The translations under genes and the position numbers were made by a program. Positions 12,065-51,747 of a stretch of 64,000 nt of DNA are shown here, piece after piece (positions within the stretch are counted from its first letter, which is position 1; every line of letters begins with the position of its first letter). Under the pieces are notes generated by a model. The model was given only the letters and a program-made list of their open reading frames with translations, ran no database searches and was not told the DNA's origin. Source of the DNA: a virus (lineage: Duplodnaviria > Caudoviricetes); the IMG/VR virus record IMGVR_UViG_3300027782_000030, positions 32,001 to 96,000 of that record; one strand, 5' to 3'.

Positions 12065-13072
12065 TTAACATTTATCTACTAAGTTATCTCTGAAGATGCG
12101 CCAACATTCTTCCCAACTCCAACGTAGGCTAGCTTCTTCTACACGAATACGATCCAATCTTAAACATTGATCTATGGCTGTTTTTAAATCTTCATCCATA
12201 TAGCCTGTAACACCTTGATCTATAACATCTTTAGGTCCAACAACTGGATATGCTGCTACTGGTGTACCACAGGCCATTGCTTCAATCATTACTATACCAA
12301 ATGTATCCCAACGACTGGGGAATACAAATACATCAGCATCGGCATAATATTTGGCTAGTTCTGCCCCACGCTTCACCCCAACGAATTCAACATCAGGGTA
12401 TTCACGCTCCATACGGCGCCGGCATGGGCCATCACCTACTACTATTTTGGTAGCACCGGGATATGCTAACCTACAAAACTCATCTAAATTCTTTTCTTTA
12501 CTAACACGCCCTACGCTTAACAATATGGGTTGTGACTGTTCTGTAGCTGTTCTAGTGCTACTACCAAATATGCTACGATCAACCCCGCGAGTCCAAGGTT
12601 TAATATCAGTTCTAAATCCACGATTGGCTAGATCATCCACCATGCTTTGTGTAGTAGTTAGTACACGACCGCTGTGTTTATGAAACCAGCGTAAATAGCG
12701 ATAACTCCAACTTGTTGGTATGCCCGCAATCTTTTCTAGTGCTTCGGGGAAACGAGTGTGATAACTGGTATTGTAACACCAACCCCAATAGTCCATCCAA
12801 CAACGAGCAGCGAAGCCTACTGGCCCTTCTGTAGCAATGTGTATGTAGTCAGGATTTACTTTTTCAATAATCCTGCCAATCCCCCAAGTCCAACTAAGTT
12901 TGATCTCATTATAACCAGGGCAGGGAATATTATGGAACTGCCTGGGGTCAAGATAAACAAAATCATACCCATCACGCTCAGCCAAAACTTCCAAGTTATG
13001 AAATGTTGTAACAACGCCATTGATTTGTGCAGGTTCATTGTCGGTTATGATTAATACTGTTTTCATTTTCAC
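12065..13072 (-). CDS. GT4-family glycosyltransferase, Agt-like diacylglycerol glycosyltransferase
   Basis: IHIATEGPVG, SYHTRFPE, GRVSKEKN, FVFPSRWDTFGIVMIEAMACG; overlaps the end of the plcP-like gene. Confidence 0.8.
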   Translation of the reverse strand: MKMKTVLIITDNEPAQINGVVTTFHNLEVLAERDGYDFVYLDPRQFHNIPCPGYNEIKLSWTWGIGRIIEKVNPDYIHIATEGPVGFAARCWMDYWGWCYNTSYHTRFPEALEKIAGIPTSWSYRYLRWFHKHSGRVLTTTQSMVDDLANRGFRTDIKPWTRGVDRSIFGSSTRTATEQSQPILLSVGRVSKEKNLDEFCRLAYPGATKIVVGDGPCRRRMEREYPDVEFVGVKRGAELAKYYADADVFVFPSRWDTFGIVMIEAMACGTPVAAYPVVGPKDVIDQGVTGYMDEDLKTAIDQCLRLDRIRVEEASLRWSWEECWRIFRDNLVDKC

Positions 13073-13820
13073 GCACCTCTGACCAAGTTATAATTTCCCA
13101 ACGACCATCCCAATGTTCAACTAGTGCGGTACAACTTTCACACCAGTCACCATCGTTCATGTAGATTACGCCGTTGATTTCTTTGATTTCAGCCTTATGT
13201 ATATGCCCACAGATCACACCATCGTAGCCCTTCTTTTTGCAATAACCGGCTAGATTTTGTTCAAATTGAAACATAAAGTCTACCGCTTTTTTGACCCGGT
13301 GCTTAAGGTACAAGCTAAGGCTCCAGTAGCCAAAACCCAAACGATGACGAATCCAATTGAGTTTAGTATTGATATTGAGTACGCAGTCATATGCTTTGTC
13401 TCCTAATATGCTGAGCCAAGGGGCCAGCCTAGTAATACCATCAAATAAATCACCATGAACTACAAGATACCTTTTTCCATCTATACCGGTGTGAATAGCC
13501 TGATTACAGATTTTAATACGACCAAAACTAACACCATATGGTATAAGTGGGCGTAAAAATTCATCATGATTGCCTGCTACATAAACTACCTGTGTTCCGT
13601 GTTTAGCATGTCCTAATACACGGCGAATGACATTGGTATGGCTTTGATGCCACTTTAATGTGTTTTGTTTCATTTTCCACGCATCTATTATGTCACCCAC
13701 TAGATACAGTGTTTCACATGTATTATGTTTAAGAAAGTTGTTTAGATAGTCTGCTTTACAGGCTTTGGTACCGAGATGTACATCACTGATAGAGATTGTA
13801 CGATAAGTTTTTTGCGCCAT
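13035..13820 (-). CDS. plcP: PlcP-like phospholipase C (LpxH-like metallophosphoesterase)
   Basis: SDVHLG, LVGDIID, GNHDE, HGD, CGHIH and NDGDWCESCTAL; adjacent GT4 gene is the known plcP-agt arrangement. Confidence 0.75.
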   Translation of the reverse strand: MAQKTYRTISISDVHLGTKACKADYLNNFLKHNTCETLYLVGDIIDAWKMKQNTLKWHQSHTNVIRRVLGHAKHGTQVVYVAGNHDEFLRPLIPYGVSFGRIKICNQAIHTGIDGKRYLVVHGDLFDGITRLAPWLSILGDKAYDCVLNINTKLNWIRHRLGFGYWSLSLYLKHRVKKAVDFMFQFEQNLAGYCKKKGYDGVICGHIHKAEIKEINGVIYMNDGDWCESCTALVEHWDGRWEIITWSEVRENENSINHNRQ

Positions 13821-13838
13821 ACTACTATTTAACAATAG

Positions 13839-13860
13839 TTATATTACAAACCTATTACAT
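13839..13860 (-). promoter_or_regulatory. Pho box upstream of plcP
   Basis: Minus strand ATGTAATAGGT TTGTAATATAA, then 7 nt, then TAAATA (13826-13831). Confidence 0.7.
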
Positions 13861-13887
13861 ATAAAAGCAACAACATAAAGAAATTAA

Positions 13888-14499
13888 TTATGTATGGTAA
13901 GTTACTATTATTTCTTCTTTTTCAAAACTCGGGAATATGAATTCATTATTATGATGCATTCTTTTATTCTTTTCTAAATTTTCAAATCCAATTCCTAACA
14001 TTACTAATGGATTATCTTCTAAATTTAATATTTCTTTTATTACTTGATTATTAAAACAAGAACAAAATCCGGTGTAATACCCTAGAATATGGGATATCAT
14101 ATTTATATATCCAAGAGCGATTCCTATTGAAATATAAGCATCTCTTACATAAGAACTATCGGTAGATTCTCTAATCTGATCAGGATATCTTTTTTTATTA
14201 ATTATTGAATCGCTTGGCGATTTACGTTCAAACACTAATAATAGATTAGCTAAAACTTGAGGATTTGTATAAATGTGACCAAACCCTAAAGTGTTTTCAT
14301 GTATTTTTTCAATAATTTCCCTGTTCGTAATAGCATGAATTTTATAATGTGCAATATTTTGTTTACTTGGACATTGGGTAGCAGCCGTTATAATTACATC
14401 TAAATCTTCTTTTGAAATTTCTTTAGATAGATTCCAATTCCTCTGACAATGCTGGCTTCGATTAATAATATTCTTAAGTTCAGGTTGATCTAATATCAT
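13888..14499 (-). CDS. Nitroreductase-family flavoprotein
   Basis: RSQHCQRNW, AATQCPSKQN, IALG, LGYYTGFCSCF motifs. Confidence 0.8.
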   Translation of the reverse strand: MILDQPELKNIINRSQHCQRNWNLSKEISKEDLDVIITAATQCPSKQNIAHYKIHAITNREIIEKIHENTLGFGHIYTNPQVLANLLLVFERKSPSDSIINKKRYPDQIRESTDSSYVRDAYISIGIALGYINMISHILGYYTGFCSCFNNQVIKEILNLEDNPLVMLGIGFENLEKNKRMHHNNEFIFPSFEKEEIIVTYHT

Positions 14500-14538
14500 T
14501 TACTCATTCTCTTAATCCTAAGTATTTATTCTAACCAT

Positions 14539-14562
14539 AAAAAAAGAGCCTCACGGCCCTTT
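14539..14562 (-). terminator. Rho-independent terminator
   Basis: Minus strand GGGCC-GTGA-GGCTC-TTTTTTT. Confidence 0.7.
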
Positions 14563-14645
14563 AGTGCTGGTTACGAGCTTCCAGCGATCCCTCTATCATG
14601 GGTCCGTTTTAAACAACCTTTTAATCCATATTCTTAATCTAAGTA

Positions 14646-15287
14646 TTACTTTCCCAATAAACTGTCGACCTTTGCTTCAACTGCATCTAACCGATGTTCA
14701 ATTTCATCTAGTGCAGGATCTGCTGGAGCGGAAACTGCTTCAAATATTTGTTGATGGACTTCAGAATTAACTGCTTCTCCTGTTGCTGTTGAAACAATAT
14801 GAGCTACCGCAGCGGCAATTTCTTCTGTACCTGCAGTTGGTGCAGGCATTTCAGCAACTGCTGCTGTAATAGCGGCTGTAATTGCTTCAGGGTCTGTGAC
14901 AACTTCAGGCTCTGCTGTAACAACTGCTAGTACCGCTGCTTTTACAATATCAGCAACTTCAGGGTTAACAATTGCATCTGCTTCGTGTTGAGCAGCTACT
15001 ACATCGCCAACAATGCCTGCGGCTTCTGCATGGTCAGCACTTGGTGAAAGTGCTAGTACATCTTCAACAGAAACTGGTGCTTCATCAGCTACGGAATAAA
15101 CAATGGCGTCAATATGGCTCTCAGTTTTTTCAGCGATCAAATGATCAACTTGAACTTCAACAACTGACAATCTGGTGTCTAGTTCTTCAATGCTTGTGGC
15201 ATAATCTGTGTTAACTTCTGTGCCAGTTAGTGTTGCTAACTTAGCTTCTACTGCTACTAATCTTGCGGCTAAATCTTGTAATCTCAT
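14646..15287 (-). CDS. Acidic Ala/Val-rich hypothetical protein with terminal coiled coils
   Basis: RBS AAGGAG before ATG 15287 (MRLQDLAARL); LxxRLxxVExKV-like heptads at both ends. Confidence 0.75.
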   Translation of the reverse strand: MRLQDLAARLVAVEAKLATLTGTEVNTDYATSIEELDTRLSVVEVQVDHLIAEKTESHIDAIVYSVADEAPVSVEDVLALSPSADHAEAAGIVGDVVAAQHEADAIVNPEVADIVKAAVLAVVTAEPEVVTDPEAITAAITAAVAEMPAPTAGTEEIAAAVAHIVSTATGEAVNSEVHQQIFEAVSAPADPALDEIEHRLDAVEAKVDSLLGK

Positions 15288-15346
15288 GGGTTGCTCCTTT
15301 AGGTTAGGTGAGTGAATCATGTCCACTCACCCTTATTTAACTGCTA

Positions 15347-15368
15347 CTATATTAAAGTAATATTACAA
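15347..15368 (-). promoter_or_regulatory. Pho box upstream of the acidic protein gene
   Basis: Minus strand TTGTAATATTA CTTTAATATAG, then 7 nt, then TAAATA (15334-15339). Confidence 0.6.
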
Positions 15369-15372
15369 AATA

Positions 15373-16947
15373 TCAGAAACTCAATAATAGTAGCTGTCCA
15401 CCTTCAACCAGTTCAGCAGCATTAGTACCAGTGGCTAGTTTATGATTTTGATCAACCAACAAGAAGTAACGCTTGCCATCTGTACGACCTAAGATACTAG
15501 TGATTTCAATGATACCGCTGGTTTCTTCGTCATTGGTCTCAGTTCCAACAACACCTGTGTAATAATCACCAAACAGCTTCTCATCATGTTGAGCAAGTAG
15601 TGTCAATGCCTTAGTAACAGGATTGTATTTCCAAATCTTACCATTGTGATTGTTACCACCAACATCCTCTTGTAGAATGATTGTGCCATCGCTAGCAACA
15701 GTCATGTTGTCAAACATCTGTGTTCCATGAATACGGCCGGCAACTGTAACAGTTTCAGTACCATCGAGCACCATTTCAAGGATGCCACCCGATTCAGGAC
15801 GGGTTAAATCAGTAAATGTCATGCTCCAAAGGCGTGTGCGACCAACTTGAGCAGTATTAGTAATACTGGTATTGATCTTGCCCCCGGTGTTGTCTTTAGC
15901 AGCATCTACTGTGTTGGTTGTTACAAAGTAGTAGCGGTTCTTGTTAACTGTATCCCAAGCACCATCTTCTGGACGCAAGAAACTTGTACCAGCAACACCA
16001 GTTACTGGGACATTAGGAACAAAACTAAATGTAGCAGTCTTATTGACCAGTCCTAGTCCAGCATCAACAGCGGTAGTTTCATTAGCAGCAACACCGCCAA
16101 CATTGACCACAGCACGATATAGCGTACCATTAGTTAGACCTGCTTTATCAACTTCAGTAGCACCAGTCTTGTTTTTAGTGCCAACATACATATAAACACC
16201 ATTGCTGCCACTGTCGCTATTGGCCATAACAATGGTCTTGTCACCGCTGTTGGGATGTGCGATTAGATTTTCCCAGCCTACACCAAATGTGGTAAATCCA
16301 CCAAAGTGTGGGAGAATGTATGCTTTGCCTTTGTCTGCTCCGCTGGCCACGATAGCAAGACCGCGTCCCATTGTAACAGTACCGTTAGCGGTTTCTTCAC
16401 CAGTCATAAACATTTTAACCGAAGAACCATTGCCTGTTGCTGAGTTGAAGAAAGCGCCGGCTGCTGGTAGATCGGCTGAACAGAAACGCTGAAATGCTAC
16501 AGCAGTTTGCTCGGCCCAAGCACCATTGACCTGTGCATAAACTTTTTTCATTAGGTCACTACCGCTCTTGACCTGTAGAGTAGTTTTATCAATAACCCAC
16601 TCACTAACAAAAGCACCAATACCACCATGAGCACGGGCAATACCAACAGTGTTGGCCAGTTCATGAGCCATTAGCACGGTGAATGTGTTGTCACCATTAT
16701 CATAAGCACCCAGTCCATCTGGAATACCCACCATGCGATAAGTGCCAACAGCGTCACCAACGGTTAAGATACTGGCAACTTTAACGCTGCTGTCAATTGG
16801 AACAATGTAGGGATCTACTGAACTGCTAACTGCTTTGCCTGATGTAAAACCAGTAACTTCTTTAGGTGCTGCTACAGTGGTGTCATCGCTACCACATGCT
16901 GTTAATAGAGCCGTTGCTACGGCTACTGCTAGAACGGTATATTTCAT
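15373..16947 (-). CDS. phoX: PhoX/DUF839-like alkaline phosphatase, lipoprotein
   Basis: Lipobox LLTAC; PDG, HEL, RFCSA, TGEE, WEN, RPEDGAWD, FDN, QED, ETSG motifs; directly downstream of pstS. Confidence 0.75.
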   Translation of the reverse strand: MKYTVLAVAVATALLTACGSDDTTVAAPKEVTGFTSGKAVSSSVDPYIVPIDSSVKVASILTVGDAVGTYRMVGIPDGLGAYDNGDNTFTVLMAHELANTVGIARAHGGIGAFVSEWVIDKTTLQVKSGSDLMKKVYAQVNGAWAEQTAVAFQRFCSADLPAAGAFFNSATGNGSSVKMFMTGEETANGTVTMGRGLAIVASGADKGKAYILPHFGGFTTFGVGWENLIAHPNSGDKTIVMANSDSGSNGVYMYVGTKNKTGATEVDKAGLTNGTLYRAVVNVGGVAANETTAVDAGLGLVNKTATFSFVPNVPVTGVAGTSFLRPEDGAWDTVNKNRYYFVTTNTVDAAKDNTGGKINTSITNTAQVGRTRLWSMTFTDLTRPESGGILEMVLDGTETVTVAGRIHGTQMFDNMTVASDGTIILQEDVGGNNHNGKIWKYNPVTKALTLLAQHDEKLFGDYYTGVVGTETNDEETSGIIEITSILGRTDGKRYFLLVDQNHKLATGTNAAELVEGGQLLLLSF

Positions 16948-16972
16948 TTTAAAACTCCTTTTGTATGTTTGT

Positions 16973-17953
16973 TTATTTGACTAACTTTGCCCAATCGGCA
17001 CGAACTTGATCCTTAACCTTTTGGGGTAATGGAACATAATCTAGGTCTGTAGCGTCCTTGTCACCCTTTGTATAGACCCAATCAAAAAATTTGGTAACTT
17101 GTTTTGTTCGCTCTCCAGTAGGATATATGAGAATAAATGTAGCGGCAGTAATAGGCCATCCATCTAAATCATTGAGATTAACTGCCATGTTGGGCACTGA
17201 CCAGTCAGCAGTCTTGGCACTTTCAGCAAATGTTAAGTCATCTGGTTGAACTACAGCACCTTTGCGGTTCTTCATGGCCACATGAGTTAGTTTGCTCTGT
17301 TTAGCAAATGCGTACTCAACATAACCAATTGATCCTGCTAGTTGTTGAACGTTAGCAGCAACACCAGCATTACCTTTACCTGCTGAAAGACTTGTTGGCT
17401 TCCAAGTAACAGTTTTACCTGTACCAGTACCTGTTTTGAACTCAGGACTTACTTTACTCAAGTAATCAGTAAACACAGCAGTTGTACCTGATCCATCAGC
17501 ACGAACCACTACATTGATAGCAGCATCAGGAAGTGCTAGACCTGGGTTAAGTTTAACAATAGCAGCATCGTTCCACTTGCTGATTTTACCTTGATAAATG
17601 TCAGCTAGTGTCTTGCCATCAAGAATCATTTTACCTGGCTCAATACCTTTGATATTGATTACAGCAACAACTCCACCGATAACTGATGGGAATTGATATA
17701 GTCCAACTTCTTTTAATTTAGTATCTGGTGTAGGATCATCACTAGCACCAAAGTCTACGGTTTTAGCAATGATTTGAGCGACACCGCCACCACTTCCGAT
17801 TGGATTGTAGTTAACAGTAGTACCAGTTTCTTTGTTGTAGGCTGCTGCCCATTTTGAATAAATAGGAGCCGGGAAAGTTGCCCCGGCTCCAGTAATCTGT
17901 GCTTGTGCAGCAAATGCGGCTGCGGCTAATAGAATTCCAACAATTTTTTTCAT
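16973..17953 (-). CDS. pstS: Phosphate ABC transporter substrate-binding protein
   Basis: GAGATFP, GSGGG, DFGASD, RADGSGTT, GKGNAGV, GSIGYVEY. Confidence 0.96.
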   Translation of the reverse strand: MKKIVGILLAAAAFAAQAQITGAGATFPAPIYSKWAAAYNKETGTTVNYNPIGSGGGVAQIIAKTVDFGASDDPTPDTKLKEVGLYQFPSVIGGVVAVINIKGIEPGKMILDGKTLADIYQGKISKWNDAAIVKLNPGLALPDAAINVVVRADGSGTTAVFTDYLSKVSPEFKTGTGTGKTVTWKPTSLSAGKGNAGVAANVQQLAGSIGYVEYAFAKQSKLTHVAMKNRKGAVVQPDDLTFAESAKTADWSVPNMAVNLNDLDGWPITAATFILIYPTGERTKQVTKFFDWVYTKGDKDATDLDYVPLPQKVKDQVRADWAKLVK

Positions 17954-18003
17954 CTAATTTCCTTTATAGTATTGTGCATTTGCACAATACTATTTAAACA
18001 TAT

Positions 18004-18025
18004 TAATGTTACAGGAATATTACAA
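18004..18025 (-). promoter_or_regulatory. Pho box upstream of pstS-phoX
   Basis: Minus strand TTGTAATATTC CTGTAACATTA (consensus half-site CTGTCAT, 11-bp period), then 7 nt, then TAAATA (17991-17996). Confidence 0.85.
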
Positions 18026-18061: not shown

Positions 18062-18442
18062 TTAGACAGATTGTTTTGATTTATAATCTTCAATAGCCGA
18101 CTTGATTGCGTCTTCTGCTAAGATTGAGCAGTGGATTTTGACTGGCGGGAGGGCGAGTTCTTCTGCAATCTGTGTGTTTCTAATTGTTGCTGCCTCGTCG
18201 AGGGTTTTGCCTTTAACCCACTCTGTGACAAGACTTGAGCTAGCAATCGCTGACCCGCACCCATACGTTTTAAATCTAGCATCTTCTATTACTCCATTTT
18301 CATTTACTTTAATTTGAAGTTTCATCACATCACCGCATGCTGGGGCTCCGACTAGTCCAGTACCTATTGTATTGTCAATTTCAAATTTTCCAACATTGCG
18401 TGGGTTTTCATAATGCGATAATACTTGTGGTGAATAAGCCAT
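18062..18442 (-). CDS. iscU: Fe-S cluster scaffold protein
   Basis: HYENPRNVG, GAPACGDVM, FKTYGCGSAIASSS, LPPVKIHCSILAEDA. Confidence 0.96.
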   Translation of the reverse strand: MAYSPQVLSHYENPRNVGKFEIDNTIGTGLVGAPACGDVMKLQIKVNENGVIEDARFKTYGCGSAIASSSLVTEWVKGKTLDEAATIRNTQIAEELALPPVKIHCSILAEDAIKSAIEDYKSKQSV

Positions 18443-19306: not shown

Positions 19307-19851
19307 GCTTTGTCCTTGTAAAAAATATGATTGCCGATTTTGTTAATTTTTTGGTATGGCCAAGCTGGGTTTACATACACAGCATGATAATACAGTGCAT
19401 CGTGCAAACTGTCAAGTCTAAATCCTTCTAACAACACTTTTTTGGCTACCGCATAACTTTCTTTATATGCTTCGTCTGTGGGCTTATTTTTATTCTTGCC
19501 TATACAATACCAACTAAATTGGCATACTACCTTTTCCATGATGATGTTCTTTTGGTAAACTACAGCACATACATCTTTGGGAAATCTAGGATCATCTACA
19601 CGATTAAGGGTTACTTGAGCAACTGCTACTTTACCCTCAAACGACTCTTGCGCCGCTTCTTTATAAATATTCATAGCCAAACAATCTAGTGTTCTGTCTA
19701 CATTTTTTGCGGATACATATGACCGAGGTTTTTCTAAAGCCACTTCTTGAACAGAGCCAAACTTAAAAGCGGTTACTGCGTTAATAACTACTGCAAGTAA
19801 TAAAATACCAAAAATACTATTAATCATTCTGATTGAAAATGCCATTTTCAA
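19303..19851 (-). CDS. SleB-like cell wall hydrolase (Hydrolase_2)
   Basis: CLAMNIYKEA, AVAQVTLNRV, QFSW, ALYYHA, IGNHIFY. Confidence 0.9.
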   Translation of the reverse strand: MKMAFSIRMINSIFGILLLAVVINAVTAFKFGSVQEVALEKPRSYVSAKNVDRTLDCLAMNIYKEAAQESFEGKVAVAQVTLNRVDDPRFPKDVCAVVYQKNIIMEKVVCQFSWYCIGKNKNKPTDEAYKESYAVAKKVLLEGFRLDSLHDALYYHAVYVNPAWPYQKINKIGNHIFYKDKA

Positions 19852-50847: not shown

Positions 50848-51747
50848 TTATTCTTCAAATATTGGTGTATTAGAACCTACGCCCTGTCTTGACCAACTTG
50901 GGTTTAGTCCATTCATTTCTAAAATATCGTCACGAATATTTTGATTTCGTTTTTCGGTATTCAATACTCTACAAAAACTATTGGTAATAGCCGCGGTATA
51001 GTATGCGAATGGGTTAGCACTCTTTGCTTCATTGAATCTCAATCCAACATATGTTAACTGAAGAATAGCACTATTACGCATTTCATCATTATAAGTATAC
51101 CCACGCCAATTGTACTTCATAGCATATTTTTCACATAGCATGATATACATTTTGGCTAACTTATTAGTCAGAGTGCCATGATCCTTACTGAAAATTCCCG
51201 TACTCATATCGCCCTTCCAATGACTTTTTCCTACGCAATAAAATTTATTATCTTCATCAATTTTAAAATGTTGGAAAGGTGGAAAGTTTACTTTAACATG
51301 AACCATATCGTCTACTTCACCTTTAGTAGTAGTATCTTCCAAATCAGCAAAAATTGCGTCAGGGTCTGAATCTTCAAATTCAAAAATATCTATAGCAGTT
51401 TTTTTCTTAACAGTTTTTCTAGGTTGTTTGGCAGCAATAGGAACATGATCCCAAGTCATTACTCTAAATACTAGATCGCTAATTGGAATTGTTTCAGGGG
51501 CTATTTTAACGGGGGAATCTACACTTAATTTATTAGCCCTAGTTTCCCTAGCCTGTTGAATATTTTCAGGGGTTAAAGCAAATTCAAAGCATTCTTCTAA
51601 AGGGGAATGAGGCATATCAATGATTAGATCATAACTGCTGTATTCCGATTTAGTAAAGTAGCAGTAAGTTGTTTTGCTTTCATGAATTTCTTTTAAAATA
51701 TCTTTATTATTTAGGTAGTTAACGGGTTTTTTTGAAGGTAGAGACAT
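50848..51747 (-). CDS. gp55: Late transcription sigma factor
   Basis: NYLNNKDIL.EI; NWRGYTYNDEM...F...KS.NPFAYYT...NSF.R.L..EK. Confidence 0.88.
   Translation of the reverse strand: MSLPSKKPVNYLNNKDILKEIHESKTTYCYFTKSEYSSYDLIIDMPHSPLEECFEFALTPENIQQARETRANKLSVDSPVKIAPETIPISDLVFRVMTWDHVPIAAKQPRKTVKKKTAIDIFEFEDSDPDAIFADLEDTTTKGEVDDMVHVKVNFPPFQHFKIDEDNKFYCVGKSHWKGDMSTGIFSKDHGTLTNKLAKMYIMLCEKYAMKYNWRGYTYNDEMRNSAILQLTYVGLRFNEAKSANPFAYYTAAITNSFCRVLNTEKRNQNIRDDILEMNGLNPSWSRQGVGSNTPIFEE

Follow-up and report, generated by a model that had tools for sequence, protein, structure and literature searches.

Control of phage genes by the PhoB of the host is established in cyanophages (PMC10976474), the described cases being pstS of P-SSM2 and genes of S-PM2d to which the PhoB of Synechococcus binds; the Pho boxes there follow the cyanobacterial pattern PyTTAAPyPy(T/A). 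In proteobacterial Pho promoters (pstS, phoA), direct repeats replace the -35 element at a fixed short gap from an element of the -10 type, ahead of Pho-regulon genes. T4 late promoters carry TATAAATA at -13..-6, are recognised by gp55 together with gp33 and the clamp gp45, and have no upstream element (PMC2988020); gp55 of T4 places adenine -12 in a deep pocket (PMC7892883). The only precedent found for a hybrid reading, i.e., PhoB needed with a non-sigma70 factor, is that of the VreI promoters of Pseudomonas aeruginosa (PMC4971064), which have a pho box at about -40 to -56, a separate -35 element and a factor with region 4.

The three sites described here belong to a freshwater jumbo phage related to T4 (record of 200.6 kb, 58% complete); the window is the whole stretch of 64,000 nucleotides analysed. 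As in cyanophages, a control of the host-PhoBR type is predicted for phosphate-acquisition genes. On the other hand, the boxes here follow the proteobacterial CTGTCAT pattern, the PstS of this freshwater jumbo phage is closest to that of Burkholderiales, and three promoters of one geometry, predicted from sequence, would serve a regulon to which phoX and a plcP/GT4 pair for lipid remodelling also belong. The sites share with proteobacterial Pho promoters the repeats in place of -35, the fixed short gap and the type of genes; they differ in having TAAATA at 11 nt instead of TAnnnT at 10 nt, in being virus-borne, in an element invariant over many phage contigs and in one predicted leaderless mRNA. 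As in T4, the phage has a gp55, and ATAAATA is found upstream of many genes. The Pho sites share TAAATA with these late promoters, as well as the position -11..-6 (by the inferred start), but have T instead of the -12 adenine and a predicted upstream activator site. Compared with VreI promoters, the box lies at -35 and no region 4 is detected in gp55.

With a probability slightly better than even, the three sites are PhoB-dependent Pho-box promoters of classical proteobacterial design, read by the host sigma70 holoenzyme with PhoB. The sequences with their statistics and conservation, the gene content and the bacterial rule for Pho-box promoters are observed; that PhoB binds, which sigma factor reads the sites and where transcription starts are deduced from them. 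Most likely, TAAATA is a plain -10 element of the host type, which does no more than resemble the late-gene signal: the likeness of TAAATA to ATAAATA is partial, both being AT-rich elements of the -10 type.

Table 1. Coordinates in the window of the three composite sites and of the associated genes and signals.
Feature	Position	Strand	Description
P1 site	18025-17991	-	TTGTAATATTC CTGTAACATTA atatgtt TAAATA; upstream of pstS-phoX
P1 Pho box	18004..18025	-	two 11-bp units; core TGTAATATTCCTGTAAC at 18008-18024
P1 TAAATA (-10-type element)	17991..17996	-	11 nt past core box; predicted start ~17985 (inferred)
P1 inverted repeat	17966..17993	-	12 bp, perfect; -16.2 kcal/mol, z -5.4
P2 site	15368-15334	-	TTGTAATATTA CTTTAATATAG tagcagt TAAATA; upstream of 213-aa gene
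P2 Pho box	15347..15368	-	repeat pattern match
P2 TAAATA	15334..15339	-	predicted start ~15328
P2 5' hairpin	15306..15332	-	11 bp; -17.1 kcal/mol, z -3.1
P3 site	13860-13826	-	ATGTAATAGGT TTGTAATATAA ctattgt TAAATA; upstream of plcP-like/GT4 pair
P3 Pho box	13839..13860	-	retained in L126 and L127
P3 TAAATA	13826..13831	-	5 nt ahead of ATG at 13820-13818; leaderless geometry
pstS	16973..17953	-	periplasmic phosphate-binding protein, proteobacterial type; Pfam PBP_like_2, E 6e-34
phoX-family alkaline phosphatase gene	15373..16947	-	50% identity, full length, to Dechloromonas PhoX
213-aa gene	14646..15287	-	function not assigned; downstream of P2
Terminator-like hairpin and T run	14543..14562	-	would close the P1/P2 transcription unit
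plcP-like metallophosphoesterase gene	13035..13820	-	Pfam Metallophos; NCBIfam LpxH match weak, below cut-off
GT4 glycosyltransferase gene (agt-like partner)	12065..13072	-	Pfam Glyco_trans_1_4 and Glycos_transf_1; overlaps plcP-like gene
gp55-type late sigma factor, 299 aa	50848..51747	-	PHROG 12791, E 4e-72; match to T4 gp55 chain 7d7c_F
Strong sigma70-type early promoter	19387..19415	-	TTGACA-17-TATTAT; upstream of iscU/pstS gene block

The sequences and coordinates of the three sites, first noted in a sequence-only reading, agreed exactly on re-reading. The three sites share one layout, i.e., two TGTAAY repeats in 11-bp phase, 11 nt and TAAATA. The composite TKTAAY-N5-TKTAAY-N11-TAAATA has 3 matches in the window versus 0.00 expected (100 shuffles). 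Without TAAATA, 3 matches are obtained versus 1.0 expected, thus the box is not significant by itself. A stricter 18-nt box, TKTAAYA-N4-TKTAAYA, has 4 copies in the whole 200.6-kb record, the fourth one having no TAAATA behind it and appearing intragenic. The three sites are all intergenic, and the box starts 39-71 nt upstream of co-oriented genes.

The genes behind the sites are of the Pho-regulon type, i.e., pstS, phoX and the plcP-like/GT4 pair (PMC4796936), the P2 gene being unassigned. The phage PstS is 57-60% identical to PstS of Burkholderiales. The phoX-family gene follows pstS after a gap of 25 nt and is probably co-transcribed with it from P1; PF05787 is found in relatives. For the 213-aa gene, Pfam, NCBIfam and PHROG searches gave marginal matches only, none of them significant; an AAGGAG ribosome site and homologues beginning with MRL both speak for its start at 15287. 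The family of the metallophosphoesterase and its GT4 partner suggest that it is PlcP, together with the corresponding role (PMC4796936). The genes occur in RNA libraries, namely assembled metatranscriptome contigs, which carry no 5'-end information. It must be noticed that in the 200-kb record no winged-helix DNA-binding domain of the OmpR/PhoB type was detected, which is consistent with a host regulator acting at the sites.

The repeats had been proposed as Pho boxes located where PhoB normally sits; both points hold, the boxes being of the proteobacterial type. The 7-bp direct repeats (CTGTCAT-like) with their 11-bp period are those found at 39 bacterial pstS genes, the P1 core matches, at 16 of 17 positions, the Pho box upstream of pstS in a Burkholderiales MAG (L110), and the boxes occupy the place where PhoB substitutes for -35. 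In the bacterial pstS promoters, TA is found exactly 10 nt past the box in 35 cases out of 39 and T at hexamer position 6 in 34/39; the full TAnnnT, 10 nt past the 18-bp box, is present in 32/39. The phage sites correspond to this layout moved by one base, and one of the bacterial rules is always broken: (i) with TAAATA at 11 nt, the 10-nt gap and the T at hexamer position 6 (T at -7) are lost; (ii) with TTAAAT at 10 nt, the hexamer becomes xTAAAT, i.e., the first base is variable and T replaces the near-invariant A at position 2. A sigma70 consensus scan recovered none of the three sites and no -35 consensus at them. The early promoters of the phage are close to the consensus TTGACA-N17-TATAAT, thus canonical signals would be read by host sigma70. 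A search of 401 sampled Burkholderiales genomes did not yield the composite at gap 11, which thus looks phage-specific rather than copied from the host.

In a phosphate-starved host, a dimer of phosphorylated host PhoB would occupy the two 11-bp-phased TGTAAY repeats, replacing the -35 element, and would then bring in the host sigma70 holoenzyme. TAAATA, 11 nt past the 18-bp core box, would be a deliberately weak -10 element, with T-12 and A-11 but no T-7. The start would lie about 23 nt past the box; it would be the G opening a 5'-terminal hairpin in the case of pstS and of the 213-aa gene, and the A of the ATG in the case of plcP, leading to a leaderless mRNA. The P1 inverted repeat covers the last bases of TAAATA together with the 5' end predicted for the pstS mRNA, and its core TGTGC..GCACA is retained in relatives. 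At the place equivalent to P2, L206 and L208 have hairpins of a different sequence. In plcP homologues, the ATG lies 4-6 nt past TAAATA in 12 promoters out of 13, and the other promoter families have a conserved G and a hairpin start 5 nt past TAAATA. From these positions, TAAATA appears to behave as a start-defining element.

This geometry, which links TAAATA to a start site, also speaks against the improbable case in which another regulator (of the OmpR family, or a phage protein whose gene lies in the 42% of the genome that the record lacks) is at work, or in which the conservation is unrelated to promoters. The 58% completeness of the record leaves room for such a protein, and the prediction of phage Pho boxes was unreliable in one tested cyanophage (PMC10976474). 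However, the box hardly differs from bacterial pstS boxes, the three downstream units are all phosphate-stress genes (the P2 gene itself being unassigned) and, as stated above, the record contains no such winged-helix domain.

The fixed spacing noted in the three sites is conserved in related phages. Among the matches listed for an IMG/VR sample, TAAATA shows a sharp peak at gap 11 past the box (35 matches versus 3-17 at other gaps) and TATAAT has no favoured gap. All six bases of TAAATA are retained in the 48 distinct composite promoters collected; the preceding base is other than A in 40 of them, A (8/48) being underrepresented. The P1 TAAATA is retained in L005, L007, L008 and L012 and is TAAGTA in L014. 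Promoters homologous to P2 have TTAAATA in L126 and L208, and ATAAATA with equal spacing in L206, L207 and L354. Three relatives follow the bacterial 10-nt TAnnnT rule: plcP of L574 (78% amino acid identity) has TATAAT 10 nt past the box, a PstS-family gene of L375 has a nearly identical box and then TATAAT at 10 nt, and in the sister jumbo phage G006, which is complete, pstS has TAAATT 10 nt past the box. The presence of canonical sigma70 hexamers behind the same boxes points to sigma70 as the ancestral partner of these boxes. The pstS promoter of the T4-like phage G008 has TATATA, likewise at 10 nt, though the late motif of this phage is TATAAATA.

The late signal of the genome itself is ATAAATA, of which 43 copies out of 78 lie at most 60 nt upstream of a start, versus a median background of 4.7% for AT-only 7-mers upstream of starts; it is often found 4-6 nt before an ATG. 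The value is 10/45 for CTAAATA and 12/108 for TTAAATA, these 12 including the 3 Pho sites and 8 copies of ATTAAATA. When TTAAATA is not preceded by A, 4/71 copies are upstream of genes, 3 of them being the Pho sites, and when ATTAAATA and the three Pho sites are removed, a single copy out of 68 is left upstream of a gene. At other places of the genome, TTAAATA does not serve as a late promoter. The contrast previously drawn between T before TAAATA at the Pho sites and A or C in late motifs is thus confirmed by the counts, and the -12 of the (T)ATAAATA box is T instead of adenine in the three Pho sites. On the other hand, TAAATA does not have to be "the late motif", given the unused TTAAATA, the T at -12 and the TATAAT or TAAATT found at 10 nt in relatives. 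The bacterial design, these hexamers of relatives, the ATAAATA late motif and the T at -12 together make sigma70 with PhoB the likeliest reader.

The gap of 11 nt puts TAAATA exactly at the place of a T4-type late box for the same start. TAAATA at 11 nt breaks the bacterial rules and fits the late-box place, thus some probability, clearly lower than that of the sigma70 reading, is left to a dual use in which PhoB-sigma70 and the gp55 holoenzyme share one start, a -12 base other than A weakening but not abolishing the use by gp55. Phosphate-dependent expression early and low basal expression late would then be the consequence. By the inferred start, TAAATA at -11..-6 corresponds to the last six bases of the T4-type late box (-13..-6), and a gap of 11 instead of 10 is expected if a late box is superimposed on a PhoB promoter so that both share one start (PMC2988020). 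The retention of the six bases in the 48 promoters and the gap-11 peak of TAAATA, with none for TATAAT (among the matches listed), go in the same direction, as does the full late motif ATAAATA with the same spacing in L206/L207, L354, L208 and L260. In G006, whose gp55 is 68% identical to that of this phage in its C-terminal part, TTAAATA (23/70), GTAAATA and CTAAATA are enriched upstream of genes (33-67% versus a background of 6.7%). Moreover, the composite is seen on jumbo-phage fragments, the two largest of which encode a gp55 of 299-303 aa. However, TTAAATA is not enriched upstream of genes here, Pho sites and ATTAAATA apart, the adenine missing at -12 is the one flipped into the deep pocket of T4 gp55 (PMC7892883), and A is rare before TAAATA in the composite promoters. 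A PhoB dimer at -40..-23 would also be expected to cover the DNA contacts that gp33 and the sliding clamp make in the activated late complex of T4 (from PMC2988020, PMC7892883).

The gp55 gene was correctly located by the sequence-only reading, as confirmed by its PHROG and T4 chain matches. Neither a Pfam family nor sigma region 4 is matched by its product; in this clade, gp55 exceeds the T4 protein by about 115 aa and contains an insert to which no function is assigned. The same reading had proposed two possibilities, i.e., PhoB activating a weakened gp55 promoter or a start shared with PhoB-sigma70; the Pho boxes, their place at -35 and the fixed spacing stand. Activation of the gp55-polymerase by PhoB, with weakened late promoters that work only when PhoB~P is bound upstream and give phosphate-dependent late transcription without sigma70, is the least likely of all and highly improbable, since TAAATA need not be the late motif, TTAAATA is unused elsewhere and T is found at -12. 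It shares with dual use the points of geometry and conservation, the long gp55 with its insert is compatible with it, and the ECF sigma VreI of P. aeruginosa needs PhoB on a pho box upstream of -35 (PMC4971064). Nevertheless, the VreI case includes a separate -35 element and a sigma region 4, the pho box being located farther upstream, and region 4 is not detected in this gp55. Activation by PhoB from a box that replaces -35 goes with sigma70 promoters (cited in PMC4971064), gp33 sits on the flap site and the clamp occupies the upstream DNA in T4 (PMC2988020, PMC7892883), and relatives have canonical sigma70 hexamers behind the same boxes.

Finally, a point against the sigma70-PhoB reading is that the plcP homologues of L128 and L130 retain xTAAATA at 5 nt from the ATG although no box stands at the right place; in these two cases the element appears to work, or to be retained, without PhoB.

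The three minus-strand sites that lie before pstS (P1), the gene of a 213-aa protein (P2) and a plcP-like gene (P3) share one design. Each is composed of two 11-bp units with the core TGTAAY (TTTAAT in one of them), 7 nt and TAAATA, i.e., the gap between the end of the 18-bp core box and the hexamer is 11 nt at all three sites. Their sequences, as transcribed in the sequence-only reading, match the window exactly. The composite pattern has 3 matches in the window vs. 0.00 in 100 shuffles; the box alone (3 matches vs. 1.0 expected in the window) is not significant. A stricter 18-nt form of the box has 4 copies in the whole 200.6-kb record, the fourth of which appears intragenic and has no TAAATA after it; P1, P2 and P3 are all intergenic and directed at minus-strand genes. 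The three-site observation is real, non-random and conserved. A third phased half-site within the spacer is ruled out by the sequence of the three sites. A cyanobacterial-type Pho box is also ruled out on sequence, and PstS is likewise of the proteobacterial type.

Features of the Pho-type promoters, their genes and their surroundings (window numbering; an empty cell means that no value is given)
Feature	Position	Strand	Remarks
P1, box; TAAATA	18004-18025; 17991-17996	minus	predicted start near 17985
P2, box; TAAATA	15347-15368; 15334-15339	minus	predicted start near 15328
P3, box; TAAATA	13839-13860; 13826-13831	minus	predicted start near 13820, on ATG
pstS		minus	behind P1; Pfam PBP_like_2; protein 57-60% identical to freshwater Burkholderiales PstS
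PhoX-family alkaline phosphatase gene, 524 aa	15373-16947	minus	25 nt after pstS; relatives carry PF05787
Terminator-like hairpin with T run	14543-14562	minus	after the 213-aa gene
Late box ATAAATA	14523-14529	minus	directly after the hairpin; 24 nt upstream of the nitroreductase-family gene
Nitroreductase-family gene	13888-14499	minus	
Metallophosphoesterase gene, LpxH/PlcP kind		minus	behind P3; overlaps GT4 glycosyltransferase gene
plcP-like + GT4 glycosyltransferase pair, overlapping	12065-13820	minus	
NifU_N/IscU-like iron-sulfur scaffold gene	18062-18442	minus	E 6e-52; directly upstream of the pstS promoter
Early sigma70 promoter	19387-19415		upstream of the pstS gene block; serves the block of the NifU_N/IscU-like gene
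Inverted repeat, perfect, 12 bp	17966-17993	minus	over the last three bases of TAAATA and the predicted pstS mRNA 5' end
gp55-type late sigma factor gene	50848-51747	minus	299 aa
ORF of ~6346 codons	63688-82728	plus	begins at the window end and runs beyond it

The 524-aa protein is 50% identical to Dechloromonas PhoX over its full length. Its PhoX assignment is based on homologues, its own Pfam scan being blank even at E 10. Family searches with the 213-aa gene behind P2 gave no significant match. The plcP + GT4 gene pair is known for phosphate-sparing lipid remodelling, often with a Pho box in bacteria (PMC4796936). A phage carries here the pair by which bacteria remodel phospholipids to glycolipids under phosphate stress, and plcP homologues are common in IMG/VR (>80 loci in one scan). 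With the ATAAATA that follows the terminator-like hairpin and the nitroreductase-family gene behind it, a late-type unit is inserted between P2 and P3.

A box of this kind stands before 39 bacterial pstS genes, with a hexamer exactly 10 nt behind it; 35 of these hexamers begin with TA, 34 have T as their last base and 32 read TAnnnT. The P1 core TGTAATATTCCTGTAAC and its counterpart in a Burkholderiales MAG, TGTCATATTCCTGTAAC, are the same but for one base. This comparison indicates that the repeats are Pho boxes of the host's type. The box takes the place of the -35 element, as its position had suggested at first sight, and the overall design is the classical one of bacterial pstS promoters. 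No phage-encoded OmpR/PhoB-type DNA-binding domain (PF00486) was found in the record (58% complete), which is consistent with the host regulator acting at the sites. It is improbable that a different regulator acts there, or that the sites have no promoter function.

The arrangement box + 11 nt + TAAATA is not seen among the 39 bacterial pstS promoters. A scan of 401 sampled Burkholderiales genomes gave 9 matches, vs. 7 for the reversed control, and none of the 9 had a gap of 11 nt. The -10 element could also be read as TTAAAT, at the canonical 10 nt. This reading was dropped: the first base of the hexamer is variable over the 48 composite promoters (T in 25, G in 8, C in 7 and A in 8), and it has T where 37 of the 39 bacterial promoters have A.

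The fixed spacing, proposed from the window alone, is conserved: the same layout recurs in close relatives before members of each of the three gene families. For pstS, the viral loci L005, L007, L008 and L012 have TTAAATA and L014 has TTAAGTA. For plcP, L126 and L127 have TTAAATA, 5 nt and ATG. For the 213-aa gene, TTAAATA is found in L126 and L208, and ATAAATA at the same spacing in L206, L207 and L354. IMG/VR was also scanned for the box followed by TAAATA or TATAAT at 6-16 nt. Among the matches listed, TAAATA has a sharp peak at 11 nt (35 vs. 3-17 at other gaps) and TATAAT is flat. At least 48 distinct composite promoters were collected, on fragments of ~350-kb phages. The two largest of these fragments encode a gp55 of 299-303 aa. 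The presence of gp55 on composite-bearing contigs is uninformative as a discriminator, since almost all contigs are small fragments of ~350-kb genomes.

The phage is a jumbo phage whose record is estimated to be 58% complete. Its capsid protein shares ~66% identity with the capsid proteins of PA5oct-like and Vibrio jumbo phages; a near-identity DNA search against phage genomes gave no match, hence no annotated close relative. It does encode the gp55-type late sigma factor previously recognized. This protein is longer than that of T4 (299 vs. 185 aa; 283-303 aa in relatives): an N-terminal helix and a sigma-2-like part align with T4 gp55 (7d7c_F), with ~150 aa unmatched between them. The gp45 clamp domain PF09116 has no match in the record (58% complete).

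Early promoters are near-consensus sigma70 promoters, TTGACA(AT)-N17-TATAAT. The late signal is ATAAATA, of which 43 of 78 copies lie ≤60 nt upstream of a co-oriented start (background for AT-only 7-mers upstream of starts: median 4.7%, maximum 20%). CTAAATA is weakly used (10/45 copies upstream of a gene). TTAAATA lies upstream of a gene in 12/108 copies, 3 being the Pho sites and 8 being ATTAAATA; outside these it is at or below background. These counts bear out the remark in the sequence-only reading that the base before TAAATA differs between the Pho sites (T) and the structural-gene motifs, and they indicate that the difference matters.

Over the whole record, ATG follows 20 of the 44 late sites with ATAAATA by 4-8 nt (e.g., 34464, 41342 (-), 59795 (+)), and the distance is 5-6 nt for several consensus early promoters. 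Many mRNAs of the phage seem to be leaderless, early and late ones alike. Leaderless geometry was dropped as a discriminator between sigma70 and gp55, since early and late promoters both often end 4-6 nt before ATG.

The best reading, favoured by a little over even chances, is that P1-P3 would be phage promoters that host PhoB controls and the sigma70 holoenzyme reads, TAAATA being a weak -10 element. It is based on the following points: (i) Pho promoters of the host itself are built in this way; (ii) standard sigma70 hexamers stand 10 nt after the box in homologous promoters of relatives; (iii) TTAAATA is no late promoter elsewhere in the genome, and the Pho-site TAAATA is not necessarily the late motif named in the sequence-only reading; (iv) the base at -12, T in P1, P2 and P3 and non-A in 40/48 composite promoters, is not the adenine that gp55 inserts into a deep pocket in the T4 open-complex structure (PMC7892883); (v) TAAATA retains T-12 and A-11 of the sigma70 hexamer, and a weak -10 element suits an activator-dependent promoter.

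Concerning point (ii), L574 has TATAAT 10 nt after the box, before a plcP 78% identical, and L375 has TATAAT 10 nt after an almost identical box, before a PstS-family gene. Both come from a box-only scan of IMG/VR (TTGTAAT-N5-TGTAATA), which gives mostly chance matches in coding DNA and is unfit for an unbiased -10 census. The pstS of G006, a complete sister jumbo phage, has TAAATT 10 nt after the box. The pstS promoter of the T4-like phage G008 has TATATA at this distance, while the late motif of that phage is TATAAATA.

A shared start, weakly usable by gp55 as well, is a doubtful possibility. TAAATA at 11 nt violates two rules that bacterial promoters keep almost without exception, and both deviations are expected if a late box overlies a PhoB promoter with the same start: the T4-type late box spans -13 to -6 (PMC2988020), and TAAATA would be at -11 to -6. 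Moreover, the six bases are unusually faithful, whereas bacterial Pho promoters use many different hexamers, and in some relatives ATAAATA is complete, with the spacing unchanged. In G006, enrichment upstream of genes is seen for TTAAATA, GTAAATA and CTAAATA alike. In the plcP homologues L128 and L130, xTAAATA is retained 5 nt before ATG with no box at the proper place.

The sequence-only reading had offered this shared start as one of two options; the other, PhoB acting directly on the gp55 polymerase itself, is unlikely, to the point of being very improbable. Region 4 is not seen in this gp55 and, in T4, the flap tip is taken by gp33 and the DNA upstream by the clamp. VreI (PMC4971064) was the one precedent found in which PhoB works with another sigma factor; it has its own -35 element, with the box further upstream.

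ATG stands 4-6 nt after TAAATA in 12 of 13 plcP-type promoters of the collected set, and several pstS promoters and the promoters of the 213-aa gene family have a G 5 nt after TAAATA, opening a hairpin. By either feature the predicted start is ~23 nt from the box, the canonical distance. This is good, if indirect, evidence that it is TAAATA which defines the start. The core TGTGC..GCACA of the inverted repeat at pstS is kept in L005, L008, L012, L014, L277 and L291; the repeat may act as a hairpin that stabilises the 5' end, or as an operator to which a protein binds.

Contigs assembled from lake metatranscriptomes (4 runs, 4 studies) span pstS, phoX and the 213-aa gene (14654-17966). One bridges P2 and one ends ~12-19 nt downstream of the predicted pstS start; being assembled, such contigs carry no starts, strands or levels. 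The DNA upstream of P1 and plcP lies outside them, which counts neither for nor against transcription there.

Marine cyanophages are already known to have phosphate genes under the control of host PhoB (PMC10976474). The new elements are: (i) the proteobacterial box type; (ii) a three-promoter mini-regulon including phoX and plcP/GT4; (iii) the phage-specific box + 11 nt + TAAATA. The sites would extend such control to freshwater jumbo phages of proteobacteria. The gene set is also larger than in cyanophages, i.e., a phosphate-binding protein, a PhoX phosphatase and a lipid-remodelling pair behind three promoters of identical geometry. Found in at least 48 viral sequences and in none of the 401 Burkholderiales genomes or 39 bacterial pstS promoters, box + 11 nt + TAAATA is a recognisable viral signature, which could help to find phosphate-responsive phage genes in metagenomes.

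It is tentatively suggested, with well below even confidence, that a hybrid promoter class may have evolved in this jumbo-phage clade. A PhoB box and a late-box core at one register would give one start for sigma70 (with PhoB, early) and gp55 (late), the -12 base being a tuning knob for phosphate-independent late expression; at the extreme, PhoB would act on a polymerase whose sigma lacks region 4. If gp55 also reads TAAATA, the virus would have a compact means of keeping a host-regulated gene on after replacement of the host sigma, and the sites would allow a direct test of whether a PhoB-family activator works with a sigma without region 4.

The viral pstS loci L020-L022, L030, L034-L037 and L040-L042 represent another phage group, characterized by box + 10 nt + TATATAA. 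A GC-rich hairpin with a T run comes immediately after this promoter, between the -10 element and the ribosome site, and the predicted start is within its 5' arm. Speculatively, read-through transcripts would thus terminate and Pho-initiated ones would not.
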